From Dehalococcoidia bacterium (GTDB lineage Bacteria > Chloroflexota > Dehalococcoidia > Plut-88900), in contig CBDBLV010000004.1 in NCBI GenBank assembly GCA_965207225.1, forward strand, positions 544,001 to 608,000: a stretch of 64,000 bases of DNA, given 5' to 3'. Under the pieces are notes generated by a model, which saw only the letters and a program-made list of their open reading frames with translations, was not told the origin of the DNA and ran no database searches. Shown in pieces: positions 44,237 to 56,274 of the stretch (position 1 is its first letter; every line of letters begins with the position of its first letter). Position numbers and translations under genes: made by a program.

Positions 44237-44422
44237 AACAACCCCAAACTTCTAGCCCGTGAAATCGGCCCATTCTAACACGTACCCTCCTTCATCCCCG
44301 ACACCAACCCGTAAACCCATCCCCGGATCAAGGCCGCCCATGCTGGGATCTGCATCAATGGGAATATGATGAGGGTGAACCTTGAGCTAATTGGTGTACA
44401 ATGGACGAATAGGTGAGCAGCA

Positions 44423-44623
44423 ATGACTAGTCTGGCCGAAATCAAGGAAGCCATCCAAAACTTGCCCCCCGCCGACTTCGCTGAAATAGCCCAGTGGTTC
44501 AATGACCTGCAAGAGGACTTGTGGGACCAGCAAATCGAAGCCGATGCAGATGCCGGCCGTCTTGACTTCTTCAAAGAACAAGTCGAGCAGGCCCTGGCAG
44601 CCGGCACTGTGAGAGACCTGTAG
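44423..44623 (+). CDS. small acidic protein, putative antitoxin
   Basis: EIKEAIQNLP...WDQQIEADADAGRLD pattern; directly precedes a ParE-like frame. Confidence 0.7.
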   Translation: MTSLAEIKEAIQNLPPADFAEIAQWFNDLQEDLWDQQIEADADAGRLDFFKEQVEQALAAGTVRDL

Positions 44624-44877
44624 CGCACCGTACCATACCCCAGTTTTGGGAACACCTCGCCTCCCTGCCCGAGCCGATTCAGCAGGTCGCCCACCGTAAC
44701 TTTCAACGCCTCAAGGAAGACCCTGCCTACCCATCCCTCCGCTTCAAGAAAGTCGGAGACTACTGGGTAGCTCGCGTCGGACCTAATTGTCGTGCCCTCG
44801 CCGTGACCAGGGGGGCAGACCTGTTTTGGGTCTGGATCGGCCCTCATGACGCCTACGAACGAATAATCAGTTCCTGA
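44620..44877 (+). pseudogene. ParE/RelE-like toxin reading frame with no canonical start codon
   Basis: frame reads (GTA)AHRTIPQFWEHLASLPEPIQQVAHRNFQRLKEDPAYPSLRFKKVGDYWVARVG...WIGPHDAYERIISS*; in-frame TGA at 44563 and no ATG/GTG/TTG before the domain. Confidence 0.65.
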
Positions 44878-44901
44878 TTCCCCCATCCCCGTCTCCCCAT
44901 C

Positions 44902-45105
44902 CCGTCATCCCCGCCACAGAGAGTCGGAATCCATCCCCGGGCGGTGAGGCCGCTCATGCTGAGAGGCCCTCTTAAGCATGCCCCGAGTCCCTCGAGGGGT
45001 ATGAGCGGGGGGGAGGCTCGCGTACAGTCCACCCGTCGCGCCCTTCCACATCCACTCCCCTCTCTGTCATCCCGAGGCCCCGCGAGGGATCTAGGACTTG
45101 CCCAC
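44902..45105 (+). repeat. ordered REP-like cluster R3-R1-R2
   Basis: GTCATCCCCG..GGAATCCA (44902), CCGCTCATGCTGAG..TATGAGCGG (44950), GTCATCCCGAGGCCCCGCGAGGGATCT (45064). Confidence 0.75.
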
Positions 45106-45159
45106 CTACATCTTTCCATGTCATACCTTCCCTTCTCCCCCGACCCCACCTCCCACCTA

Positions 45160-45194
45160 TTGATTTTGTAAATGTATGTGCTATACTTATGTTC
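45160..45194 (+). promoter_or_regulatory. sigma70 promoter with extended -10
   Basis: TTGATT-16 nt-TATACT with a TGn extension, in an AT-rich island. Confidence 0.6.
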
Positions 45195-45379
45195 GTGGCA
45201 CCGGCCTCGTTACCCGGGCCACCAAACCAGGAAAGGACTAAAGGAGTCCCATGAGCCGCATAGGCCTCACATGGCCCCGTCGCACCCGGTCGGTATGGGA
45301 CCGACCCTCTGCCGACACGCACCTCCTCCCCACTACCTTTCCGCCTACCGTGTCCCTCAGCCCTTCACCCTTCCCCCGT

Positions 45380-45808
45380 GGAAGTTCAAAGCCCAGCGCC
45401 CCCTCTCGACCACTGTCGTCCGGCGTCACTAAGGAGCCGCAACTTACCTTGCTGCCCCACCCGGACGTGGATGCCCGCGGTTTTCCGCGGAAGGACCCCA
45501 CCTGCGCCCATAGCGGCGTACGGATGGATGCCTGCTTTCACTCGCTGCAGATGTTCCCACGGCTAACCCCCGCGAGTGCCCCCCTCCGCCGTGGATGCCT
45601 GCCCAGGCTCGCCGCAGATGTATTTCCCACAGCTAACCCTTTGCGAGCTTTCCCCTCCGCTGTGGATGCCCGCGCCTTTGCGCGGAGGTACGCCCGCAAC
45701 GCCCTACCCGGCCTTGCGAAGATTGCCCGGGCCAACGCCCAGGCGATTGCCCACGTTCCAACCCCCGACGCCCCGGCTTACGCCGCAGAGGGGGCGCTGG
45801 CAACTTCC
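45380..45808 (+). ncRNA. candidate structured ncRNA domain (cassette 1)
   Basis: closing helices 45380-86/45802-08 and 45393-406/45787-800; tandem modules with covarying pairs. Confidence 0.5.
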
Positions 45809-45853
45809 TCATTTAGTTCCTCTTCCTCCTACGCCATCCCCTCCCTTATTCCT

Positions 45854-45970
45854 AGTACTGAACTAGAGGCAAGCGCCTGCGCCATGGCGCAGGCGCTTGC
45901 CTCTGTTTTTTCCTCCCCCTCTCCCTTGAAGGCCCTAAGGGAGAGGGGGATCAAGGGGGTAAGGGTTCCC
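45854..45970 (+). repeat. element E copy A
   Basis: AGTACTGAACT + perfect 40-bp palindrome 45865-45904 + CCCCCTCTCCC/GGGAGAGGGGG hairpin; homologous to 53789-53905 and 54905-55044. Confidence 0.85.
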
Positions 45971-46175
45971 CTCCCCGCCCCTTAAACAATCAAACCCATG
46001 CCTGAAACCCCAATTCAATCAAAACCTCCCTAGAATCCGGGAGTCCCTTCCCCCACAATTGAATGCCCCGGCCACCGTCCGACCCCCGGCCGCTTGACCT
46101 GAACGCCCATAGGCGTAACAATGGCGCCCACAGGCCGGTCTTTACCCAATCGACTAGACGCAGGGGGTGAACGGG

Positions 46176-47276
46176 ATGGGATACCGGATTATTTCAGCGG
46201 ACAGCCACCTCGATCTGCAGTGGCTTCCCCACGACGCCTTTACTTCCAGGGCCCCGGCTGAGTGGAAGGACAAGGTCCCGTACGTCGAGGCCCGCCCCGA
46301 CGGCAACTACTGGATGGTCGAAGGCCGCACCATGACCCGCGCCGGCTGGTATGGCCCGGGCGTCAACGGCGGCAAGCGCGGCGAGATGCTCGAAAGGGAG
46401 GGCTTCACCGTCGGCGACCTCCGCTGCTCCGACTACCAGCTCAGAAAGGCCGACCAGGAACGCGACGGCGTCGACGCCGAGGTCATCTACGGCATCCTCA
46501 CCACCGACCGCAGCTTCGACGACAAGGAAGCCCTCGCCGCCACCTACCGCGCCTACAACGACTACATCTCCGAATGGCAGCAATACGACCCCGACTGGCT
46601 CGTGCCCCTCGGCGAGATCCCCAACCATGACGGCAAGGCCGCCGGCGGTGAGCTCTCCCGCCTGGCCGAGATCGGTGTCCGCGGCGCTGAGTTCGCCCCG
46701 GCAACCATGACTCACCCCTTCTGGAGCGACGAGTGGGAGCCCCTCTGGGATGCCGGCGAAGAGACTCAGCTTCCCGTCTCATTCCACGCCTTCAACATCT
46801 CGACCACCTTCTCCGACAAGGACCACCCCTCCGCCGCCGCCGTCAGCCTCTGTCTCGCCCCATCACGCGCCGACGAAGTCCTCTGCGCCCTCATCTTCTC
46901 CGGCGTCCTCGAACGCCACCCGAGACTCAACGCCATCCTCGGCGAGAGCGGCATCGGCTGGCTGCCCTTCATGCTGGAGCGCATGGACTACTCTTACGAC
47001 CGCCGCCTCACCGACCTCGAACTCCCCCTCCTCCCCTCCGAGTACTTCAAGCGGCAGGTCTACGCCAGCTTCATCATCGACTACTGGGGCACAAAGGCCA
47101 TGTGGGAGCTCGGCTACCTAAAGAACATCATGTGGTCCACCGACTACCCCCACCGCGATGGCTCCTGGCCCGACTCCCAGGAGATCATCGACCGCACCTT
47201 CAAGGACCTCCCTGAGGACGTCAAGAAGGCCTGCGTCCACGACAACGTCGTCCGCCTCTTCAACCTCAACGACTGA
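46176..47276 (+). CDS. amidohydrolase_2 family protein
   Basis: SADSH, VSFH, GESGIGW, MWSTDYPH. Confidence 0.9.
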   Translation: MGYRIISADSHLDLQWLPHDAFTSRAPAEWKDKVPYVEARPDGNYWMVEGRTMTRAGWYGPGVNGGKRGEMLEREGFTVGDLRCSDYQLRKADQERDGVDAEVIYGILTTDRSFDDKEALAATYRAYNDYISEWQQYDPDWLVPLGEIPNHDGKAAGGELSRLAEIGVRGAEFAPATMTHPFWSDEWEPLWDAGEETQLPVSFHAFNISTTFSDKDHPSAAAVSLCLAPSRADEVLCALIFSGVLERHPRLNAILGESGIGWLPFMLERMDYSYDRRLTDLELPLLPSEYFKRQVYASFIIDYWGTKAMWELGYLKNIMWSTDYPHRDGSWPDSQEIIDRTFKDLPEDVKKACVHDNVVRLFNLND

Positions 47277-47299
47277 CCTCTACATTCCCACCAACGACA

Positions 47300-47331
47300 A
47301 ATCGGCGGGTGCGATATCGCACCCGCCGATT
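47300..47331. terminator. palindromic hairpin between convergent genes
   Basis: perfect 32-bp palindrome AATCGGCGGGTGCGATATCGCACCCGCCGATT. Confidence 0.65.
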
Positions 47332-47359
47332 CATTTGTTGAACTTATCGAAGCTTAGGG

Positions 47360-48274
47360 CTATCCGATTGCCGGCGCGGCCTCTCGGGCCAGGACGCCCA
47401 AGTCGCTCATCAGACCTTCCAGCCTCGATTCCTGCTCCGCGGTCAGGGGCCTGAACGGGGAGCGCGGAATGCCGATGTCCACGCCAGCCATTGCCGTGGC
47501 GGCCTTTGCGGTAGCGGCGTATCCCTCGGTCTCGAAGAAGTGGTTCAGGCGGTACAGCGGTCTCCACAGTTCGCGGGCGGCGTGCCAGTCCTTGCGCTCA
47601 ACCACCAGCTCGAAGAGCTCCACACAGCGCCCGGGAGTCGCATTGGCTACGCCCCACACGCAGCCCTTGGCCCCGTGCAGCAGCCCGGCCAGAGAACCGG
47701 TGTCCGAGCCGTTGAAGATGATCAGGTCTTCAGACCTCTCCTCCAGCACCCGTTGGAACTGGACTAGGTCCCCGGTGGAGTCCTTGATCATCTGGACGTT
47801 GGGTATTTCCACCAACCGGGCCAGGACCTCGGGGGTGAGATTGACCTTCGAGTGGGCGGGGATGTTGTAGACCATGATTGGCAGGGGGACCGCATCGTTG
47901 ACGGCCTGGTAGTGGTCGACCAGCTCCTGGGTGGTGGGCACCTCGTAGAAGGGCGGCACGATCATCAGGGCGTCGCAGCCTGCGGCCTCGGCGTGCTTGC
48001 TCAGCTCTATCACTTCCCAGGTGCTGCATGCGCCCGTGTGGGCCATGACCGGCACCCGACCCGCCACCTGGTCTACGGTCATCTCGGTGACCCGCTTCCG
48101 CTCCTCGAAGCTCAGGCTTGCGAACTCGCCGGTGCCGCCGCATGGGATGATCCCGTGGACACCGTTCTCCAGCTGGAACTCGATGAGCCTTCTCAAGCTC
48201 CCCTCATCGATGCTCTGGTCTCCCCGGGAGAAGGGGGTACAGATAGGGGTATAGATACCTCTGAATTTGCTCAC
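47360..48274 (-). CDS. dihydrodipicolinate synthase/N-acetylneuraminate lyase family protein
   Basis: GGTGEF, MVYNIP, IKDSTGD; GTG start behind AAGGAGG. Confidence 0.88.
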   Translation of the reverse strand: MSKFRGIYTPICTPFSRGDQSIDEGSLRRLIEFQLENGVHGIIPCGGTGEFASLSFEERKRVTEMTVDQVAGRVPVMAHTGACSTWEVIELSKHAEAAGCDALMIVPPFYEVPTTQELVDHYQAVNDAVPLPIMVYNIPAHSKVNLTPEVLARLVEIPNVQMIKDSTGDLVQFQRVLEERSEDLIIFNGSDTGSLAGLLHGAKGCVWGVANATPGRCVELFELVVERKDWHAARELWRPLYRLNHFFETEGYAATAKAATAMAGVDIGIPRSPFRPLTAEQESRLEGLMSDLGVLAREAAPAIG

Positions 48275-48431
48275 ATTACTCCTCCTTATTGGTGCAGTCC
48301 CGTTGGACTGCCCTTGCGGTCTCAGTGGTTGAATGCTAGCAAAGCCCGACACCCCTGACAACTCCGCAATAGGCCGTGCTAGAATCCTCCCGAATGGCCC
48401 GAAGACTATACCCACCTTTTGGAGGAATAAC

Positions 48432-48884
48432 GTGCAGGTAGAACAGAAGCTGCAAGAACTGGGCATAACCTTGCCCGAGGTCCGGGACCCGGTCGGCAAC
48501 TACGTCCCGACCGTCCGAACCGGGAACCTTCTCTACGTCTCAGGCCACATAGGAGACCTGACCGACGCCCTCGGCCAGCTGGGCACGGATCTCACGGTGG
48601 AGGAGGGGTACGAAGCCGCCCGAAAGACGGCAATTGCACTCCTTGGTTCAGTGAAGGGCGCCATCGGTGACCTGGACAAGGTTAAGAGGGTGGTCAAGCT
48701 GCTGTGTATGGTCAATGCGGCAGTCGGGTTCACGCAGCACCCCTCGGTTGCCAACGGATGCTCGGACTTGCTGGTGGAGGTATTCGGGGAAAAGGGTCGG
48801 CATGCCAGATCAGCCATAGGCTTCTCCGGCCTTCCCGGCAACGGCTGCATCGAGATAGAGATGATCCTCGAAATCGAGGATTAA
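48432..48884 (+). CDS. RidA/YjgF family protein
   Basis: GNYVP, VANGCSDLL, GRHARSA; GGAGG RBS. Confidence 0.88.
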   Translation: MQVEQKLQELGITLPEVRDPVGNYVPTVRTGNLLYVSGHIGDLTDALGQLGTDLTVEEGYEAARKTAIALLGSVKGAIGDLDKVKRVVKLLCMVNAAVGFTQHPSVANGCSDLLVEVFGEKGRHARSAIGFSGLPGNGCIEIEMILEIED

Positions 48885-48908
48885 GGAGTGCCTTCCTAGG
48901 GAGCCGGC

Positions 48909-49208
48909 ATGGATATCAGTGCCCCGATACATCCCAGAGAACATTTGGCCGAAATCATAGAAGAGTTGGATATAAGCCAATATCGCCTTGCCGTCACTAT
49001 TGGAGTGCCGCCCAGACGAATCAACGAGATTGTGCATGGCAGGCGCTCCATAACTGCCGACACAGCACTCCGAATTGGCAAGGCCCTTGACATGACTCCC
49101 GAGTTTTGGCTCAACCTCCAGCGGATGTTTGATCTGGATGTCGCTAGTGCGACAACGGATGTCTCCGGGATTGATACGCTCGTCCCGAGTCCGAAAGGCT
49201 CCCCGTGA
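48909..49208 (+). CDS. higA: HigA-family HTH antitoxin (orphan)
   Basis: PIHPRE.L, RINEIVHGRRSITADTALR, FWLNLQ. Confidence 0.88.
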   Translation: MDISAPIHPREHLAEIIEELDISQYRLAVTIGVPPRRINEIVHGRRSITADTALRIGKALDMTPEFWLNLQRMFDLDVASATTDVSGIDTLVPSPKGSP

Positions 49209-49231
49209 AAGCAGGTCTTCCTCGATTTGCG

Positions 49232-51916
<2,685 letters not shown>

Positions 51917-51998
51917 TGGTCTCTCGTTTACGAAGTTTGTGGAAAGGCATCGGCGGGACGGCTCACGGGTGGGAGTATATCACGCAGCACCGAGCAGA

Positions 51999-53372
51999 TT
52001 AGGCGAGCTCTCGTTCCACATCCGAGAGCACCTTGTCCACCTGCCCGACCACGTAGTCGATCTCGTCTCGGGTGACGATGAGCGGGGGAATCAGGAATAT
52101 GATGTCGCCCCTCTGTCGGGCGAGGAGGCCGTGGCGGAGGAAGGCTGCGGTAATCTTTTGGCCGAGAGCTGCGTCTGCCGGGAAGCGCTCGCGGGTGTTC
52201 CTGTCCTTGACCAGCTCAATGCCGCAGAGGAGTCCCAGGCCGCCACGTATGTCTCCGACTATGGGGTGTTCGTAGAGGGTCTGTAGCTGGTCGAAGAGGT
52301 AGGCGCCCATCCTGGCGGAGTTCTCGACCAGGCCTTCGCGGTCGAGGATGTCCAGGTTGGCAAGCGCTGCGGCACAGGCGGCCGGGTGTCCGCCGAAAGT
52401 GAAGATGTGACGGAACATCTCGCGGTCGCCGCCAATGAAGGTGTCGGCGACTTTCCTGGTGGCGATGGCGGCGCCGATGGGCTGGTACCCGCTGGACAGG
52501 CCCTTGGCCCCGACCAGGATGTCGGGCACGAGGTCCCAGTGGTCGGAGGCGAACATCTTGCCCGTGCGACCAAAGCCTGTGACCACTTCATCGGCGATGA
52601 TGAGGACGCCGTAGCGGTCGCAGATGGAGCGGACGGTGGGCCAGTAGTCGGGGTGGGGGACGGTACAGGTGGCGGCGGAAAGGGGTTCGGCGACGAAGGC
52701 GGCGACAAGCTCGGGACCCTCGTCGAGGATGGCCCTCTCCACGTCCTGGCCGCACTGCAGGGTGCATTCGCCCATCTGGCTGCAATAGAGGCAGCGGTAG
52801 GGGTTGGGCATGGAGACGTGAACGTTGCCCGGCATCAGGGGTCCGAAGTCCTTGTCACCAGCGCCGGCCCCTCCGCCGAGGCTGATGGTGGCGAGGGTGC
52901 CGCCGTGGTATGAGCCGATCCTGCTTATGACCTTGTAGCGGCCCGGTTCGCCGCGGAGCTTGTGGTATTTCTTGGCCATTTTGAGGGCGGTCTCAATGCC
53001 CTCGGAGCCGCCGCTGACCAGGAAGACCCGGGACTCCTTGTCGGGGGCGAGGGAGGCGAGCTTTTCGACGAGGCGCAGTGCTGGCTCGTTGGTGGTGTGT
53101 TCCGGGGAGTAGTTGATCTTCACCAGCTGGTCTGCCACTGCGTCTGCGATCTCCCGACGGCCGTAGCCTACATTCTGCAGCTGCATCCCGGAGATGAGGT
53201 CGAAATAGCGGTTGCCGTGGATGTCCTCGACCCAACAGCCCTCTCCCCTTTCGACGATGTTGAGGCCGCCGGGCTGGGATAGCTCCGCGACCTGTTGGGA
53301 ATGAGGCCAGAAGTGGTCGGCGGCGATCTGCTGGAGCCGGTCGAAGCGTTCAGATGGGGTCGGGGATATCAC
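51999..53372 (-). CDS. aminotransferase class III (omega-amino acid/taurine:pyruvate-like)
   Basis: SGGSEG, SYHG, DEVVTGFGRTG, AKGLSSGY; start uncertain. Confidence 0.88.
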   Translation of the reverse strand: MISPTPSERFDRLQQIAADHFWPHSQQVAELSQPGGLNIVERGEGCWVEDIHGNRYFDLISGMQLQNVGYGRREIADAVADQLVKINYSPEHTTNEPALRLVEKLASLAPDKESRVFLVSGGSEGIETALKMAKKYHKLRGEPGRYKVISRIGSYHGGTLATISLGGGAGAGDKDFGPLMPGNVHVSMPNPYRCLYCSQMGECTLQCGQDVERAILDEGPELVAAFVAEPLSAATCTVPHPDYWPTVRSICDRYGVLIIADEVVTGFGRTGKMFASDHWDLVPDILVGAKGLSSGYQPIGAAIATRKVADTFIGGDREMFRHIFTFGGHPAACAAALANLDILDREGLVENSARMGAYLFDQLQTLYEHPIVGDIRGGLGLLCGIELVKDRNTRERFPADAALGQKITAAFLRHGLLARQRGDIIFLIPPLIVTRDEIDYVVGQVDKVLSDVERELA

Positions 53373-53451
53373 AACAGCAACCCTAAGATGCCGGTTTCCT
53401 GAGGAACGTTCGGAAAGGAGGGCAAGAAGCAGACTCAAAGAAAAAAGGCAC

Positions 53452-53567
53452 CCGGCGGCGACCTATTTTCCGCGGAGAGTTGCCCCTCTAGTATCGTCGG
53501 CGCAGAGGTGTTTCACTTCCGTGTTCGGAATGAGAACGGGTGGGCCCACCTCGCTATAGCCACCGCA
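53452..53567 (-). rRNA. rrf: 5S rRNA (stand-alone)
   Basis: GCGGUGGCUAUAGCG...CACCCGUUCUCAUUCCGAACACGGAAGUGAA...AAUAGGUCGCCGCC, canonical 5S motifs. Confidence 0.95.
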
Positions 53568-53587
53568 GTGCCTTTATTCAGGGACGA

Positions 53588-53616
53588 ATTCTACTATGAC
53601 ACCGATGTCGGCGCAA
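53588..53616 (-). promoter_or_regulatory. sigma70 promoter of the 5S gene
   Basis: TTGCGC-17 nt-TAGAAT on minus strand, about 20 nt upstream of 5S. Confidence 0.6.
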
Positions 53617-53788
53617 GGGCTTGTGTTCGTTCCGGAGGTTGGCGACATGCTAAGTCTCTATTCAGTTGTGGGGGGTGGGGTTTTGGTTGAACGTTGATTG
53701 AACTCGTAGCTGGTTTGATTGAATGACGCCTAAAGGGATTGCTGAGAATTTCGCGTGGTGCGGGGAGGGGATGCCTCCAGCCCCGCGG

Positions 53789-53905
53789 GGGAACCCTCAC
53801 CCCCTTGGTCCCCCTCTCCCTTGGGGCCTTAAAGGGAGAGGGGGAGAGAAGAACAGAGGAAGAGGTTGGCGCTGCAGCGCCAACCTCTTCCTCTAGTTCA
53901 GTACT
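53789..53905 (-). repeat. element E copy B
   Basis: perfect 40-bp palindrome 53855-53894 within conserved flanks. Confidence 0.85.
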
Positions 53906-54036
53906 GGTAAGAGGGGAGGGTATGACGCATAAGGAAGCGCAGGGCGTGGATTCCCGCTTGGGGGCCGGAATAGCGGGATTGGAAGTTATTCAGTTTGGGG
54001 GCACGTTGTCGGTTCTGTCTGTTGGGGTTTAGGGTC

Positions 54037-54495
54037 GGCGATGGAAGACGCACCTGGAGCGGTGACCCCGCAGGGTGTCGCTGGCCCGGCCGTACGGGGT
54101 CGGTCAGTCCGGTCCCGCCTCACTGGACGGTCGGACTGCGGCCGGCAGAAGCCCCTTTCTTTAGTGTCGGCTTGGAGGCGTCCCAGGGCTGGGGACGTGT
54201 CTCCGCCGCTGCCTAGATCTGGCTGTGTAGGCGGACATACGGGTCCGTCATCCGTCACAGGTTCCAATAAACGGGTTAGCTGCGCTGTAAGTGAATACAG
54301 GAAGGGGAATGTCCAGAGTCATGTCCCCACGCAGGAGTACGGGGTTTCCAGTTCGCCGCCTGTATCCAGGAACCCGGAGTGGCGGTCTGCCCAGTTTCAT
54401 TTGCTGAAGCGGACGGAGAGCCGAGCGGTCCTCGGCTACGGGCGACCCCGTTCCGCTCCTTAGGTCGGGTTGCTCCAGGGCGTCTTTCCATCGCC
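54037..54495 (-). ncRNA. candidate large structured ncRNA domain (cassette 2)
   Basis: 24-nt bulged closing helix 54472-95/54037-60; many internal helices with G-U pairs on the minus strand. Confidence 0.55.
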
Positions 54496-54534
54496 TGGGG
54501 GGACAGGGGAATGTGATGGGTCGGGACGATGTGG

Positions 54535-54771
54535 AGGAGATGGCGCCTTTCGCTTGTGCCGCAGGCCTCTCTTTTATCCGTTCTTAATACCCTTCGACAA
54601 GCTCAGGGCGAACGGAACGGAGAAGGCCGTTGGGATGGGCCAGGACGTTGAGTCCTCCGGGCGCCGGGATAGGAGATGGCGTCTGTCGCTTGTGCCGCAA
54701 CCTGTCCGCCTCACAAGGGAGGGGAGAGGCATTGGGATGGGCTTGGGCGTTGAGTCCTCTCGGGCGCCGGG
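54535..54771 (-). repeat. imperfect tandem duplication in cassette-2 leader
   Basis: AGGAGATGGCG..TCGCTTGTGCCGCA at 54535/54671; TTGGGATGGGC..CGTTGAGTCCTC..GGGCGCCGGG at 54630/54732. Confidence 0.8.
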
Positions 54772-54825
54772 GTTGTTCCCCTTGGGTTTTCGGGTTCCTC
54801 CTTAAGGTGGTGTCGGGTCTAGACT

Positions 54826-54861
54826 TAGAACAAATATAAAGCTCAAGTGTTTGCATGTCAA
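54826..54861 (-). promoter_or_regulatory. near-consensus sigma70 promoter
   Basis: TTGACA (54861-56)-17 nt-TATATT (54838-33); no credible CDS downstream. Confidence 0.7.
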
Positions 54862-54904
54862 GGGGTATGTTACGTTTATGGAGGGAATATCCCCCGGTCC
54901 CCCA

Positions 54905-55044
54905 GGAAACCCTCACCCCCTTGATCCCCCTCTCCCCCTCGAGGGACTCGGGGCAGGCTCTTAGGGCCTTTAAGGGAGAGGGGGAAAGAAGAACAGAGAC
55001 AGACGTGGGTGCGTTGCACCCACGTCTGTCTTTAGTTCAGTACT
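54905..55044 (-). repeat. element E copy C (with 24-nt insertion)
   Basis: 39-nt hairpin 54995-55033 within conserved flanks; insertion at 54937-54960. Confidence 0.85.
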
Positions 55045-55065
55045 GAGGGGACAGAACCCCGCCCC

Positions 55066-55357
55066 AGATTCCTCGCGGGGCATCGGAATGACAGTGAGGG
55101 GTGTGATTGGCTATGGAGGGATGCGACGGGTCGGCAGGATGTGGGCCTCGCCCCGCTCATACTTCGAGGGCCTCAGCACGAGCGGCCCCACCCCAGGGCA
55201 ATCCTTTGTGATTGCCGCTACGCGGGAGGGGATACCCCCAGCTCCACGGGATGGATTCCCGATCGGAGTCGGGAATGACGGATGTGAGGAGGGATGCCAG
55301 GGGTGAGGGACGTGAGTGGGCAAGTCCTAGATTCCTCGCGGGGCATCGGAATGACAG
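55066..55357 (-). repeat. ordered REP-like cluster R2-R3-R1-R2
   Basis: reverse-complement copies of the 44902-45105 repeats at 55316-57, 55248-81, 55146-85, 55066-94. Confidence 0.75.
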
Positions 55358-55479
55358 GGGAGAAGGGGGCGGGGCGATGGGGAAGGCGGTAGTGATCCAG
55401 GCAGAACATGGATTGTTCCCGTAGCTGTATGATTGTTTTCGAGAAAACTCTCTATGAGATTAGGAGAAGGGGGTTTGGA

Positions 55480-56274
55480 GTGTCGGGTAGAGATGAGTGT
55501 CGGGAGGGAATCCTGGACTCGGCGGAGTTTCCCCGTTCGGCGAAGTATGATCCTGAATGGGTCCTGGAGAACATGATGGGGCCGAACGCCCTGTGGTTGA
55601 CGGAGTCCCTGGCAGGGTGCATGAATTTCGAACCGAATATGCGGGTCCTGGACATGGGCTGCGGCAAGGGGCTCAGCTCCATATTCCTGGCGAAGGAGTA
55701 CGGGGTGGAGGTCTGGGCGACGGACTTATGGGTAGATGCGAGCGATAACTTTCAGCGCTTTTGTGCGGCAGGTGTTGAAGACAGGGTGTACCCCATACAT
55801 GCGGAAGCGCACGCACTGCCATACGCCGACGGCTTCTTCAACGCCATTGTGAGCGTGGACGCCTATCACTATTTCGGGACGGATGACCTCTACCTACAGA
55901 CCCACATGGCGAGGCTTATCAAGCCCGGTGGCCAAATGGGGATTGTGGTCCCCGGGTTGGTGGAAGAGCTGACAGCGAACGAGCCCCCGGAACACCTAGA
56001 GAACTATTGGGAGCCCGCCTTGTTCAGCCTGCACAGCCCGACCTGGTGGAGGCGTCACTGGGAACGAAGCGGCCTCGTGACAGTCGAACTTGCCGATTTG
56101 ATCCCGGATGGATGGAAGCTCTGGATGGTGTCGGACCGGGCCTGGTCTGAGCGGCTGGGCAAGCCCAGCGAAGAGGCCGATATGCTGGCCCTGGATGGGG
56201 GTCGTGCCCTGGGGTTCACACGCATGGTTGCCCGCAGGAACGAAAGGCCGGCGGCGCGGCTGGATGCGCTGTAG
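55480..56274 (+). CDS. class I SAM-dependent methyltransferase
   Basis: MGPNALWL, VLDMGCGKG, AEAHALP; start uncertain. Confidence 0.85.
   Translation: MSGRDECREGILDSAEFPRSAKYDPEWVLENMMGPNALWLTESLAGCMNFEPNMRVLDMGCGKGLSSIFLAKEYGVEVWATDLWVDASDNFQRFCAAGVEDRVYPIHAEAHALPYADGFFNAIVSVDAYHYFGTDDLYLQTHMARLIKPGGQMGIVVPGLVEELTANEPPEHLENYWEPALFSLHSPTWWRRHWERSGLVTVELADLIPDGWKLWMVSDRAWSERLGKPSEEADMLALDGGRALGFTRMVARRNERPAARLDAL

Follow-up and report, generated by a model that had tools for sequence, protein, structure and literature searches.

Two intergenic cassettes in a Dehalococcoidia genome probably belong to one modular family of self-transcribed, protein-less elements

Results

Two cassettes among 48 related loci

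On balance we favour the reading that the two cassettes flagged in the window (the whole 64,000-nucleotide stretch that was analysed) belong to a single modular family of intergenic elements, protein-less and self-transcribed. The window's genome holds 48 related loci, both cassettes included, so that what had been presented as a pair is two members among many. A unit measures 0.6–1 kb and runs from its own sigma-70 promoter through a 5' module and a structured body of 0.3–0.55 kb, closed by a long-range helix, to a terminator. In class T, to which cassette 1 belongs, a 5' hairpin precedes an SD and AUG from which a frame stays open across the whole folded RNA, and the unit usually ends in an intrinsic terminator. 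In class N, to which cassette 2 belongs, the SD is perfect (AAGGAGG) but lacks a start codon, stops interrupt every frame, and the usual end is an unstructured, C/A-rich tail. The genome contains 37 domains with GGCGATGGA/TCCATCGCC arms, whose leaders are of class N in 26 cases and class T in seven, with none found for four; a further 11 class-T loci lack these arms.

The family is genus-restricted among the genomes searched. BLAST gave 24–37 matches per genome in all eight sister-species genomes of the same genus, each of which also carries the class-T leader, and none of the family in 32 genomes from other genera; at nine of nine loci examined outside the genus the match was a nested 28-nt REP alone (about 54616–54589 in the cassette 2 leader, the sole part of it with such a match).

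Table 1. Positions of cassette features within the window
Feature	Position	Strand	Remarks
REP-like array R3-R1-R2, upstream of cassette 1	44902–45105	+	read in sequence
Cassette 1 promoter P1, TTGATT-16-TATACT, TG extension	45160–45187	+	start inferred near 45194
5'-terminal hairpin	45195–45222	+	helix 1 of alignment A2; 4/5 pairs with changes on both sides
Class-T leader, SD AAGGAG (45241–45246) and ATG (45251)	45241–45253	+	conserved in copies
244-codon frame, extends past terminator	45251–45985	+	open without amino-acid constraint; no Pfam family
Helix-closed body, A type	45393–45800	+	arms 45393–45406 and 45787–45800
Element E: intrinsic terminator, then second hairpin	45864–45965	+	19-pair stem 45864–45905 plus T run
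Tail-like motif CACAATTGAATG, then amidohydrolase promoter (46094–46122)	46054–46122	+	read in sequence
REP-like repeats R2, R3, R1, R2 and E element, upstream of cassette 2	54912–55357	-	terminator 55031–54997
Cassette 2 promoter P1, TTGACA-17-TATATT	54833–54861	-	start inferred near 54826
Class-N leader	54496–54826	-	AAGGAGG without start codon at 54803–54797
Helix-closed 459-nt body	54037–54495	-	arms 54495–54472 and 54060–54037, family-wide type GGCGATGGAA/TTCCATCGCC
C/A-rich tail, ends with AAACTGAATAAC	53985–54036	-	read in sequence
Element E: intrinsic terminator and second hairpin	53800–53895	-	19-pair stem 53895–53854
Second tail motif CACAACTGAATAG, promoter-like site, 5S rRNA gene	53450–53672	-	5S at 53567–53450

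Relation of the two cassettes

The original prediction described two homologous non-coding cassettes with one architecture, and most of its elements were recovered. Both cassettes have a sigma70 promoter and, downstream, element E with its 19-pair terminator stem (Table 1). The REP order R3-R1-R2 occurs upstream of both, and at five loci genome-wide as against 0–2 for each of the five other orders, and CTAAGGAGC (45429; 54463) and CAGCTAACCC (45630; 54282) lie where they had been placed. The closing helix of the 459-nt domain was confirmed, whereas the domain given as 429 nt spans 408 nt in cassette 1. No Rfam family reached its gathering score in either cassette, and both folded better than their shuffled sequences (z = -5.41 for cassette 1 and -2.31 for cassette 2; 20 shuffles each). 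The proposal of a diverged, promoter-driven family is supported, and the RNA folds of its elements are conserved.

The homology itself was not supported, as the bodies are not detectably homologous and profile HMMs of either miss the other cassette. In k-mer simulations the sharing of motifs lies at chance level: eight nine-mers are common to both transcripts where 5.4 are expected (116 of 500 simulations reach eight), two ten-mers where 1.6 are expected (214 of 500), and CTAAGGAGC is present in just two of 15 A-type copies. The link between the two bodies runs via intermediate types with a leader or closing arms in common. The description 'non-coding' fits cassette 2 alone, whose body has 4, 4 and 3 stop codons in the three frames. 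Cassette 1, with an SD-ATG and a 244-codon frame kept in relatives, is not simply non-coding, because the start is conserved in its class and the frame is kept open.

Promoters, leaders and ends

Other species' copies of cassette 1 differ in sequence at P1 and yet retain consensus-like -35 and -10 boxes at the same position, while P1 of cassette 2 matches at 11 of 12 positions and is the top site within 44800–55500; a P1-like site lies upstream of all 26 class-N domains. In the class-T leader GAGTCCCATGAG is kept in 14 of 15 A-type copies, with GAAGT in the remaining copy, and the conserved start across the own-genome class-T loci is ATG in 16 of 17 and ACG in one, with variant SD sequences. 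The SD-ATG of cassette 1 is predicted to pair with CCUCCUCC at 45322–45329 (helices 2 and 3, which show no variation). Its body contains GGATGCC-hairpin modules at 45467, 45526, 45591 and 45662 and C(A/G)GCTAACCC at 45560 and 45630. The class-N leader of cassette 2 carries the GGACTCAACG motif twice, at 54757 and 54655, and GCGGCACAAGCGA...CCATCTCCTCC, ending at 54533.

At the 3' end, tail and intrinsic terminator tend toward mutual exclusion, a tail occurring without a terminator 22 times and with one three times. Of the 26 class-N domains 21 have the tail motif, and in 21 of 26 an intrinsic terminator is absent within 330 nt; such transcripts may simply read through into the next gene. Among class-T domains the counts are five of seven for a terminator and none of seven for a tail. 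Element E is itself abundant in the genome (~110–130 BLAST hits per 20-nt bin; 76 by regular expression). The genome encodes RNase J and Rho, with scores of 561.7 and 596.4 bits respectively.

An open frame without protein conservation

The class-T frame stays open without amino-acid constraint. In the window's genome 15 of 17 class-T loci have no stop within 450 nt in the ATG frame, and among armed domains a stop-free frame occurs in seven of seven of class T versus none of 30 others; in A-type copies from five species the ATG frame is open in 14 of 15, although the copies share kinship and counts such as 14/15 or 7/7 therefore suggest more independent events than there were. Under mononucleotide shuffling the A-type frame remains open with P of about 0.03, and the two other frames of these copies contain 1–5 and 2–8 stops. 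A-type copies are 553, 556, 559, 565, 568 and 619 nt long, in steps that are multiples of 3, with one exception of 567, and the first ~30 class-T codons are free of indels across subfamilies. Substitutions are nonetheless spread evenly over the codon positions, 102:107:100 in the A type and 16:16:16 in the first 90 nt, giving no codon periodicity. Local frame switches are compensated, and one arm sequence falls in two reading frames among B-type copies. Frame length ranges over 190–320 codons of drifting sequence with no match to a Pfam family, and the stop codon of cassette 1 lies ~70 nt past the terminator T run.

A conserved RNA fold

The RNA fold is conserved, with covariation. Over 15 copies the A-type fold comprises 138 pairs with 97.2% of cells paired, and compensatory change on both sides is seen in 18 pairs as against 11.0 +/- 1.9 in shuffles, none of 500 of which reach 18; when partners are slid, 2–5 pairs are changed on both sides. 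The 14-pair closing helix is invariant across the 15 copies. The body type of cassette 2 is so conserved that its covariation is nearly uninformative (compensatory change in four of 96 pairs, from one or two events; covariation term -2.33). In silico, antisense strands fold as well or better (A2: antisense -190.5 versus sense -161.7), and strand was therefore assigned from promoters, SD, frame and terminators.

Genomic sites and mobility

The elements are insertion-polymorphic, with different bodies at one site across species. Orthologous sites are filled in four of nine genomes at nusA, eight of nine at leuS and three of nine at folD; at these three sites the element ends at a conserved resident -35 box, and where a species has no element its resident promoter is still intact and conserved. 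The leuS site holds at least five body types across species, and upstream of 5S (Rfam 5S_rRNA, 87.8 bits) an element is found in five of nine genus genomes, again with differing bodies. Class-N elements lie 50–300 nt upstream of same-strand genes, which include nusA, leuS, folD, ribF, uvrA, def and moaA (names read from translations) and 5S rRNA. Cassette 1, which precedes an Amidohydro_2 (Pfam) gene at 46167–47276, has copies at the orthologous site of two sister genomes; these are 92% and 84% identical to it, and their coding flanks 95–96% and 87–89%. The family behaves as the suggested non-autonomous cassette and is insertion-polymorphic, but the HUH enzyme proposed for its spread was not found: the window's genome (92.3% complete) has no HUH/Y1 transposase with PF01797, and neither terminal inverted repeats nor a target-site duplication nor a mobilising enzyme could be identified. 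Four reverse-transcriptase (RVT_1) genes are present.

Origin from a terminase-like gene

The family derives from an internal piece, approximately residues 194–375, of a terminase-large-subunit-like gene. In tblastn the D-type peptide, which reads terminase-like sequence in frame, matched full-length genes with identities of 74% and 66%, C-type bodies at ~1e-15, B-type bodies at 8e-4 to 0.04 and class-N type-iii bodies at 5e-5 to 6e-3, and the codons for GPSI are the counterpart of the right arm. The parent, with 1–5 full-length copies per genome in the genus, matches PHROG terminase-large-subunit families (E 7.5e-5 to 7.8e-4) and adjoins an SPP1-type portal gene (E 2.7e-17). Fragment-type matches to residues ~194–375 number 8–29 per genus genome versus 1–4 per genome elsewhere, and are confined to the genus among the genomes searched. 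A decayed gene had been named as a possible counter-explanation; a gene-fragment origin was indeed found, yet the copies are not simply decaying.

Discussion

Several known systems resemble the family in part. MITEs, mobile insertion cassettes and Correia-type repeats are intergenic, non-autonomous and supply promoters or terminators. Like them, the present units are multi-copy, protein-less, intergenic and insertion-polymorphic between close relatives, and carry regulatory signals and inverted repeats able to fold in the transcript. Unlike them, units of 0.6–1 kb each bring a full set of promoter, leader and terminator, a long inverted repeat that is internal rather than terminal, an origin in a phage gene fragment and, in one class, an open frame; neither a target-site duplication nor a parent transposase was found for them. 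The 'ornate' ncRNAs (OLE, GOLLD, ROOL, HEARO/omega RNA, raiA) are several hundred nt long with many conserved helices and their own promoter, are often linked to mobile or phage DNA, and are of unknown function. The family shares with these its length, many helices, own promoter, tie to mobile or phage DNA and unknown function; their Rfam models gave no match in either cassette, and the family differs in its dozens of copies per genome, its exchangeable bodies, its presence in one genus among the genomes searched and a class predicted to be translated end to end. The mRNAs of hok/sok-type type I toxins are compact, with long-range 5'-3' pairing and an SD sequestered in structure. The present elements are likewise multi-copy, intergenic and closed at long range with the SD in predicted structure, but have a frame of 190–320 codons in place of a short hydrophobic toxin frame, and no antisense RNA gene was seen for them.

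STAB-SD was reportedly described in Bacillus by Agaisse and Lereclus in 1996 (cited in PMC7509114), and ribosome-mediated 5' protection is treated in PMC5737220. In the cases known, the stabilised mRNAs belong to real genes. Class N similarly has a strong SD near the 5' end without a start codon in a genome that encodes RNase J, and class T has a predicted initiating ribosome at a strong SD; unlike those mRNAs, the putatively protected RNA here has no conserved protein product. Putative mobile promoters ('Promoter reuse in prokaryotes', PMC3575422) are highly similar promoter-bearing sequences found repeatedly upstream of unrelated genes in a genome. Our family also places promoter-bearing repeats before unrelated genes within one genome, but its promoter would drive its own structured RNA and the neighbour gene keeps its own conserved promoter.

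The family looks like a selfish repeat in having dozens of copies and several body types, which one would not expect of an RNA gene that acts in trans. Among the alternatives, a selfish element at the DNA level, mobile and non-autonomous in the manner of a MITE or mobile insertion cassette, is unlikely but deserves the most serious hearing. Its helices would be DNA inverted repeats or by-products, its promoter and fold would serve its own spread alone, and that spread might use an RNA intermediate and one of the four genomic reverse transcriptases; presence or absence at orthologous sites, module swapping at a single site and good in silico folding of both strands all suit it. The closing helices, however, lie within the unit and not at its ends, target-site duplications were not seen, and orthologous copies diverge about as slowly as their coding flanks. 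A DNA transposon has no need of a promoter kept despite sequence turnover, nor of an SD-ATG, an open frame and covariation in a 5' hairpin, and a retro-copy would lack the promoter upstream of its own transcription start. We give less credence to a cis-acting upstream module, in which an added promoter and long structured leader tune the adjacent housekeeping gene; the leader might include ACAACYGAAUA, an antitermination motif resembling boxA. The position of class N before same-strand genes, its end at the resident -35 box, the 21 of 26 domains without an intrinsic terminator and a similar motif, TTAACAAC(T/C)GAATAG, in the 16S and 23S leaders point that way, but the resident promoter is conserved where the element is missing, the same gene occurs with or without an element in close relatives, bodies differ, downstream genes have no common function, and strong intrinsic terminators close both flagged cassettes before the next gene.

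The remaining alternatives concern the coding history of the bodies. That class-T units are true genes for proline-/arginine-rich disordered proteins with a conserved arginine-rich N-terminus, their RNA structure being secondary, is improbable: the conserved SD-ATG, the maintained frame with net length changes in multiples of 3, the indel-free first ~30 codons and the in-frame terminase-like sequence of D-type copies are offset by the missing third-position excess, in the first 90 nt or elsewhere, by compensated frame switches and nucleotides read in two frames, by the absence of a Pfam match and by the position of the cassette 1 stop beyond its terminator. Least credible of all, and very improbable, is that recombination has scattered inert pieces of prophage terminase genes, which are now decaying as pseudogenes. 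The terminase-like parent persists in full length in every genus genome, but the bodies all cover the same ~180-residue part of it, have gained a promoter, leader, closing helix and terminator, keep stops out of one frame, show compensatory change and include large invariant blocks common to 28 copies in seven genomes.

We return, with moderate confidence, to stand-alone units, mobile or exchangeable, each of which would produce a structured RNA that is stabilised. The product that matters would be an abundant structured RNA, which in class T translating ribosomes would shield from RNase J-type decay and from Rho, and which in class N would be shielded from the same decay and Rho by ribosomes merely bound at the start-less SD. 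The C/A-rich tail may act as a Rho-dependent terminator, and copies would spread and swap modules via recombination or an enzyme acting in trans.

A multicopy family of intergenic elements

The original prediction treated the plus-strand element at 44902-45970 (cassette 1) and the minus-strand element at 55357-53789 (cassette 2) as a pair, and they prove instead to be 2 among 48 loci of one family in this genome. BLAST against the organism's own genome found the core of cassette 1 in three copies (100%, 99% and 92% identity) and that of cassette 2 in two, the second at 95% identity, while the cassette 1 leader was found at 17 loci and the cassette 2 leader, arms and tail at ~25. Two classes can be told apart by their leaders: class T, to which cassette 1 belongs, has a Shine-Dalgarno (SD) sequence and an ATG, and class N, to which cassette 2 belongs, has AAGGAGG and no start codon. 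A pattern search for armed domains, i.e. bodies closed by GGCGATGGA...TCCATCGCC and accompanied by a leader or tail motif, returned 37, of which 26 carry a class-N leader and 7 a class-T leader, with the leader not found in 4; 11 more class-T loci with other bodies complete the 48. The family is present in 8/8 same-genus genomes (24-37 matches per genome, the class-T leader in every one) and was not found in 32 genomes of other genera, where the sole match, at 9/9 loci examined, was a 28-nt REP inside the cassette 2 leader. This nested repeat, CCGTTCGCCCTGAGCTTGTCGAAGGGT, was matched at extracted loci L120-L128, which come from genomes of the class outside the genus, other families among them. 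The organism resembles Dehalococcoidia, on the weak ground that the aconitase of the window has its best identity, 62%, to a Dehalococcoidia MAG. The sequencing runs matched to 45100-55000 were of DNA and include some labelled sponge, coral or marine metagenome with small shares (0.11-0.32), a weak hint of habitat at most.

The positions of the main features are collected in the table. As had been predicted, REP-like repeats precede both cassettes in the order R3-R1-R2 (3 further loci share it; the other five orders occur 0-2 times each), each cassette has a sigma-70-type promoter, and element E, a terminator hairpin plus a second hairpin, lies downstream of both. The long-range closing helix was likewise recovered in both cassettes with the expected 459-nt domain in cassette 2, but the domain of cassette 1 measures 408 nt and not 429. 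In a scan with the Rfam 15 covariance models, which included RNase P, tmRNA, 6S, SRP, introns, OLE, GOLLD, ROOL, HEARO and raiA, no family reached its curated gathering score in either cassette, in agreement with the first reading; the only passes within the window were 5S rRNA and one tRNA, and permissive thresholds gave only chance-level miRNA-type matches on the element E hairpins (the best at 28.9 bits, where the gathering score is 95.5).

Several other repeats accompany the family. Element E is itself a repeated composite, in which a strong intrinsic terminator (variable stem of 16-19 pairs, then a T run) is joined to a second, conserved hairpin, CCCCCTCTCCCTT...GGGAGAGGGGG; it is found at ~75-130 places across the genome and is in effect a mobile terminator. 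In both cassettes, and at other loci too, the stretch from element E to the next promoter contains an A/C-rich repeat, CCTTAAACAATCAAA...CAATTCAATCAAAAC.... The GGATGCC-hairpin modules of the cassette 1 body form short tandem arrays elsewhere, as a small repeat family in its own right. A 203-codon ORF without a Pfam family directly precedes cassette 1 and is absent along with the cassette from one sister genome.

Positions of features of the two cassettes and of associated genes and repeats (window coordinates, unless a contig of the window's own genome, G000:C, or an extracted locus, L, is named)
Feature	Position	Strand	Remark
Cassette 1 promoter, TTGATT-16-(TG)TATACT	45160-45187	+	
Cassette 1 5' hairpin		+	between promoter and AAGGAG
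Cassette 1 AAGGAG; ATG	45241; 45251	+	
Cassette 1 closing arms	45393-45406 / 45787-45800	+	enclose 408-nt domain
Cassette 1 terminator	45864-45905	+	19 pairs and T run; within element E
203-codon ORF	44275-44886	-	
Cassette 2 promoter, TTGACA-17-TATATT	54861-54833	-	11/12 positions match
Cassette 2 AAGGAGG	54803-54797	-	start codon absent after it
Cassette 2 leader		-	3' of AAGGAGG; partly duplicated
Nested 28-nt repeat	~54589-54616	-	
Cassette 2 closing arms	54495-54472 / 54060-54037	-	24 nt each; enclose 459-nt domain
Cassette 2 C/A-rich tail		-	between right arm and terminator
Cassette 2 terminator	53895-53854	-	19 pairs
5S rRNA gene	53567-53450	-	3' of cassette 2, after a promoter-like site
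Element E in the window	45864-45965; 53800-53895; 54912-55031		
A/C-rich repeat	45966-46050		
A/C-rich repeat	53650-53790	-	
Other rRNA genes	G000:C4:510741-512337	+	
Other rRNA genes	G000:C5:49658-52796	-	
Parent terminase-like gene	L233 2188-3576; G000:C1 ~233.7-235.1 kb	+	
Parent terminase-like gene	L234 3270-4664; G000:C5 ~241.3-242.7 kb	-	
RVT_1 genes	G000:C2:158087-158773; C5:1548409-1549095; C5:1553608-1554405; C5:1671488-1672288		
MQTQTPQPNN-type tails	G000:C5:911761; C4:237486; C5:105362		examples
GGATGCC-hairpin arrays	G000:C5:1098976-1099230; C5:1804575-1804785; C5:1273179-1273289; C4:180567-180919; C2:367425-367768		

Relation between the two cassettes

The two cassettes had been taken as homologous, but homology of their bodies is not detectable: in nhmmer searches, HMMs built from 15 bodies of the cassette 1 type (A type) and 28 of the cassette 2 type each missed the other's cassette, and direct body homology is rejected at that sensitivity. 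Nor do the motifs thought to be shared exceed chance level (common 9-mers 8 against 5.4 expected, 10-mers 2 against 1.6), and CTAAGGAGC occurs in just 2/15 A-type copies. B-type loci, which have another of the class-T bodies, join a class-T leader to GGCGATGGAAGG arms, with a body clearly alignable with a class-N body type. Judged from these alignments, cassettes 1 and 2 are linked modularly, via intermediates such as the B type.

Conservation of the RNA fold

As anticipated, both predicted transcripts outdo their dinucleotide shuffles in folding (20 shuffles each; z = -5.41 in cassette 1, -2.31 in cassette 2). For the A type the RNAalifold consensus comprises 138 pairs with 97.2% of cells paired, and the covariation that had been proposed as a test is present: 18 pairs are changed on both sides, compared with 11.0 +/- 1.9 after shuffling (0/500 reach 18) and 2-5 with slid partners. 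Three structures hold most of the covariation, namely the 5' hairpin, another hairpin (alignment columns 613-640) and a long-range helix; no variation occurs in the 14-pair closing helix or in the helices of SD/AUG with CCUCCUCC. A-type promoters vary in sequence by species and retain consensus -35 and -10 boxes. For the cassette 2 body type (28 copies, 7 genomes) the same test yielded little, with compensatory change in 4/96 pairs from one or two events; most core columns are invariant, and a type so conserved offers little covariation. Comparison of sense and antisense alignment folding and of G-U with A-C counts did not discriminate the strands; since the antisense folds equally well in silico, the strand call rests on promoters, SD, frame and terminators. 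For the short leaders of class N the RNAalifold consensus was no more than weak (-17.9), and their conservation in sequence exceeds that in structure.

Translation and termination signals

Both cassettes had been described as non-coding. The description fits only cassette 2; in class T no protein sequence is conserved, but the ATG frame is kept open. The copies are relatives and frame counts therefore overstate independent events, yet the frame is stop-free over 450 nt in 15 of the 17 own-genome class-T loci (the exceptions are one frameshifted copy and one ACG start), in 7/7 class-T armed domains compared with 0/30 that are class-N or leaderless, and in 14/15 A-type copies (five species), where the other two frames hold 1-5 and 2-8 stops. 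ATG-to-right-arm lengths in the A type (553, 556, 559, 565, 568 and 619) change in multiples of three; the sole off-length copy, 567, is the one with the lost frame, and indels of +2/+1 and -1/+1 offset each other nearby.

An open frame from a conserved start is what a true protein family would present. Purifying selection on amino acids is, however, not seen: A-type substitutions are spread over the codon positions as 102:107:100 overall and 16:16:16 over the first 90 nt, frame shifts are compensated, and identical arm nucleotides are read in two frames among different copies. Pfam searches of the cassette 1 and D-type frames (D type being a further class-T body) returned zero families. Selection in class T acts to keep the frame open and not on the protein. 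The cassette 1 frame reaches its stop codon (45983) only past the terminator, and its message may therefore lack an in-frame stop.

In class N the AAGGAGG lies ~24-30 nt past the predicted transcription start, is not followed by ATG, GTG or TTG, and is kept in 30/30 leaders aligned, these being the leaders <200 nt among 58 distinct ones extracted. Such a start-less, strong SD near the 5' end resembles a STAB-SD. A C/A-rich tail ending ACAACYGAATA follows 21/26 class-N and 0/7 class-T domains, and an E-type intrinsic terminator is found within 330 nt of 5/26 class-N and 5/7 class-T domains; 22 domains have the tail without a terminator and 3 have both. The genome encodes Rho and RNase J. Several class-N tails read ATG CAA ACC CAA ACC CCA CAA CCG AAC AAC (MQTQTPQPNN...) ~22 nt past the right arm, probably a chance frame in C/A-rich sequence.

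Origin of the bodies

In their ATG frame, two D-type loci read a sequence with 74% and 66% identity to a pair of full-length genes (~460-490 codons) at other places in the genome, and the D-type peptide also matches the other bodies: C type, a further class-T body, at ~1e-15, B type at 8e-4 to 0.04, and type iii, a class-N body, at 5e-5 to 6e-3. The right closing arm coincides with the GPSI codons. Pfam did not recognize the parent gene, which has weak matches to PHROG terminase-large-subunit families (E 7.5e-5 to 7.8e-4) and is followed by an SPP1-type portal gene in one of the two loci. Of the 41 genomes of the class that were searched it is present in 33, mostly once in those of other genera and as 1-5 full-length copies within the genus; fragment-type matches are confined to the window's genus and all map to residues ~194-375. 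On these comparisons the family bodies derive from a fragment of the terminase-like gene. The conserved gene, with the portal gene following in one locus, may represent a domesticated packaging or gene-transfer module.

Genomic sites and alternative explanations

The orthologous site of cassette 1 is filled by it in two sister genomes (92% and 84% identity; coding flanks 95-96% and 87-89%), holds a different class-T type in one genome and is empty in another. An element lies upstream of the 5S rRNA gene in 5/9 genus genomes, and its body type differs among them; among the nine genomes the nusA site is filled in 4, leuS in 8 (at least five body types) and folD in 3. In all three the resident promoter is conserved whether the site is filled or empty, and the element's conserved 3' segment stops at the -35 box. 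A cis-acting promoter or leader module, or a riboswitch, could be supposed from this position and from the promoter that each cassette carries, and is made unlikely by the diverse downstream genes (named by eye from translations), the patchy presence at nusA, folD and leuS, and the differing bodies. A processed rRNA-operon relic was considered as well, since cassette 2 lies before 5S and a further copy sits 1.7 kb upstream of 16S, and was rejected: the rRNA genes are served by promoters of their own, that element is separated from 16S by a PrpD-like gene, and 4/9 genus genomes are element-free within 330 nt upstream of 5S. The three rRNA genes are unlinked and single-copy, and the 16S and 23S leaders contain TTAACAAC(T/C)GAATAG, with similarity to a boxA and to the tail motif of the elements.

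A purely selfish DNA element, of the MITE or mobile insertion cassette kind, is consistent with many copies that lack a transposase gene (48 loci, no conserved protein). The long inverted repeat is internal to the unit. Comparison of filled and empty sites at folD and nusA showed neither a clean left junction nor a duplication, the left junctions being blurred because REP and E elements have co-inserted. The suggestion that an HUH enzyme encoded elsewhere spreads the cassettes found no support, as a PF01797 (Y1/HUH) search of this genome (92.3% complete) gave no match. REP/BIME units with a RAYT, which are 20-40-nt palindromes, were rejected since the present units are 0.6-1 kb, R1-R3 merely accompany them and Y1_Tnp was not found. 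Four genes for reverse transcriptases (RVT_1) are present in the genome; two score identically and have 586-codon open frames. Inert pseudogenes would agree with bodies derived from a gene fragment; the A-type covariation and the selection for an open frame in class T argue for elements that are maintained.

Discussion

We conclude that these elements are self-contained transcription units with a conserved RNA fold, and that they form a modular family that spans the genus and is insertion-polymorphic. The RNA would be the product, protected in class T by ribosomes translating through it and in class N, by analogy with the STAB-SD, by ribosomes sitting on the start-less SD. Where no ribosome follows, the unstructured C-rich tail may allow Rho-dependent termination, and modules would be swapped via recombination among copies. 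The literature search did not find a description of such elements, the nearest concept found being promoter reuse (PMC3575422).

A bolder reading, which we regard as unlikely, is that a packaging-gene fragment has become a genetic element of a new sort, an RNA-centered, promoter-seeking cassette with exchangeable payload bodies. Ribosomes would keep its transcripts for their own sake, by purposeless translation or a start-less landing pad, and the element would move via RNA or cooperate with the terminase/portal module; in the latter variant its RNA might serve DNA packaging or gene transfer as a cofactor, decoy or marker.

Should the main conclusion above hold, part of a protein gene can be reused as a large structured RNA with the intermediates surviving in the same genomes, the D type reading protein sequence, the C and B types keeping frame but not sequence, and class N having lost the frame. 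Translatability alone would then be selectable, and the family would offer a natural test of ribosome protection against Rho and RNases in a little-studied phylum, with dozens of natural variants for structure probing. It would also show a repeat family populating the DNA immediately 5' of the promoters of housekeeping genes in a compact genome, and would explain ~50 loci per genome that gene callers would label hypothetical proteins or leave blank.
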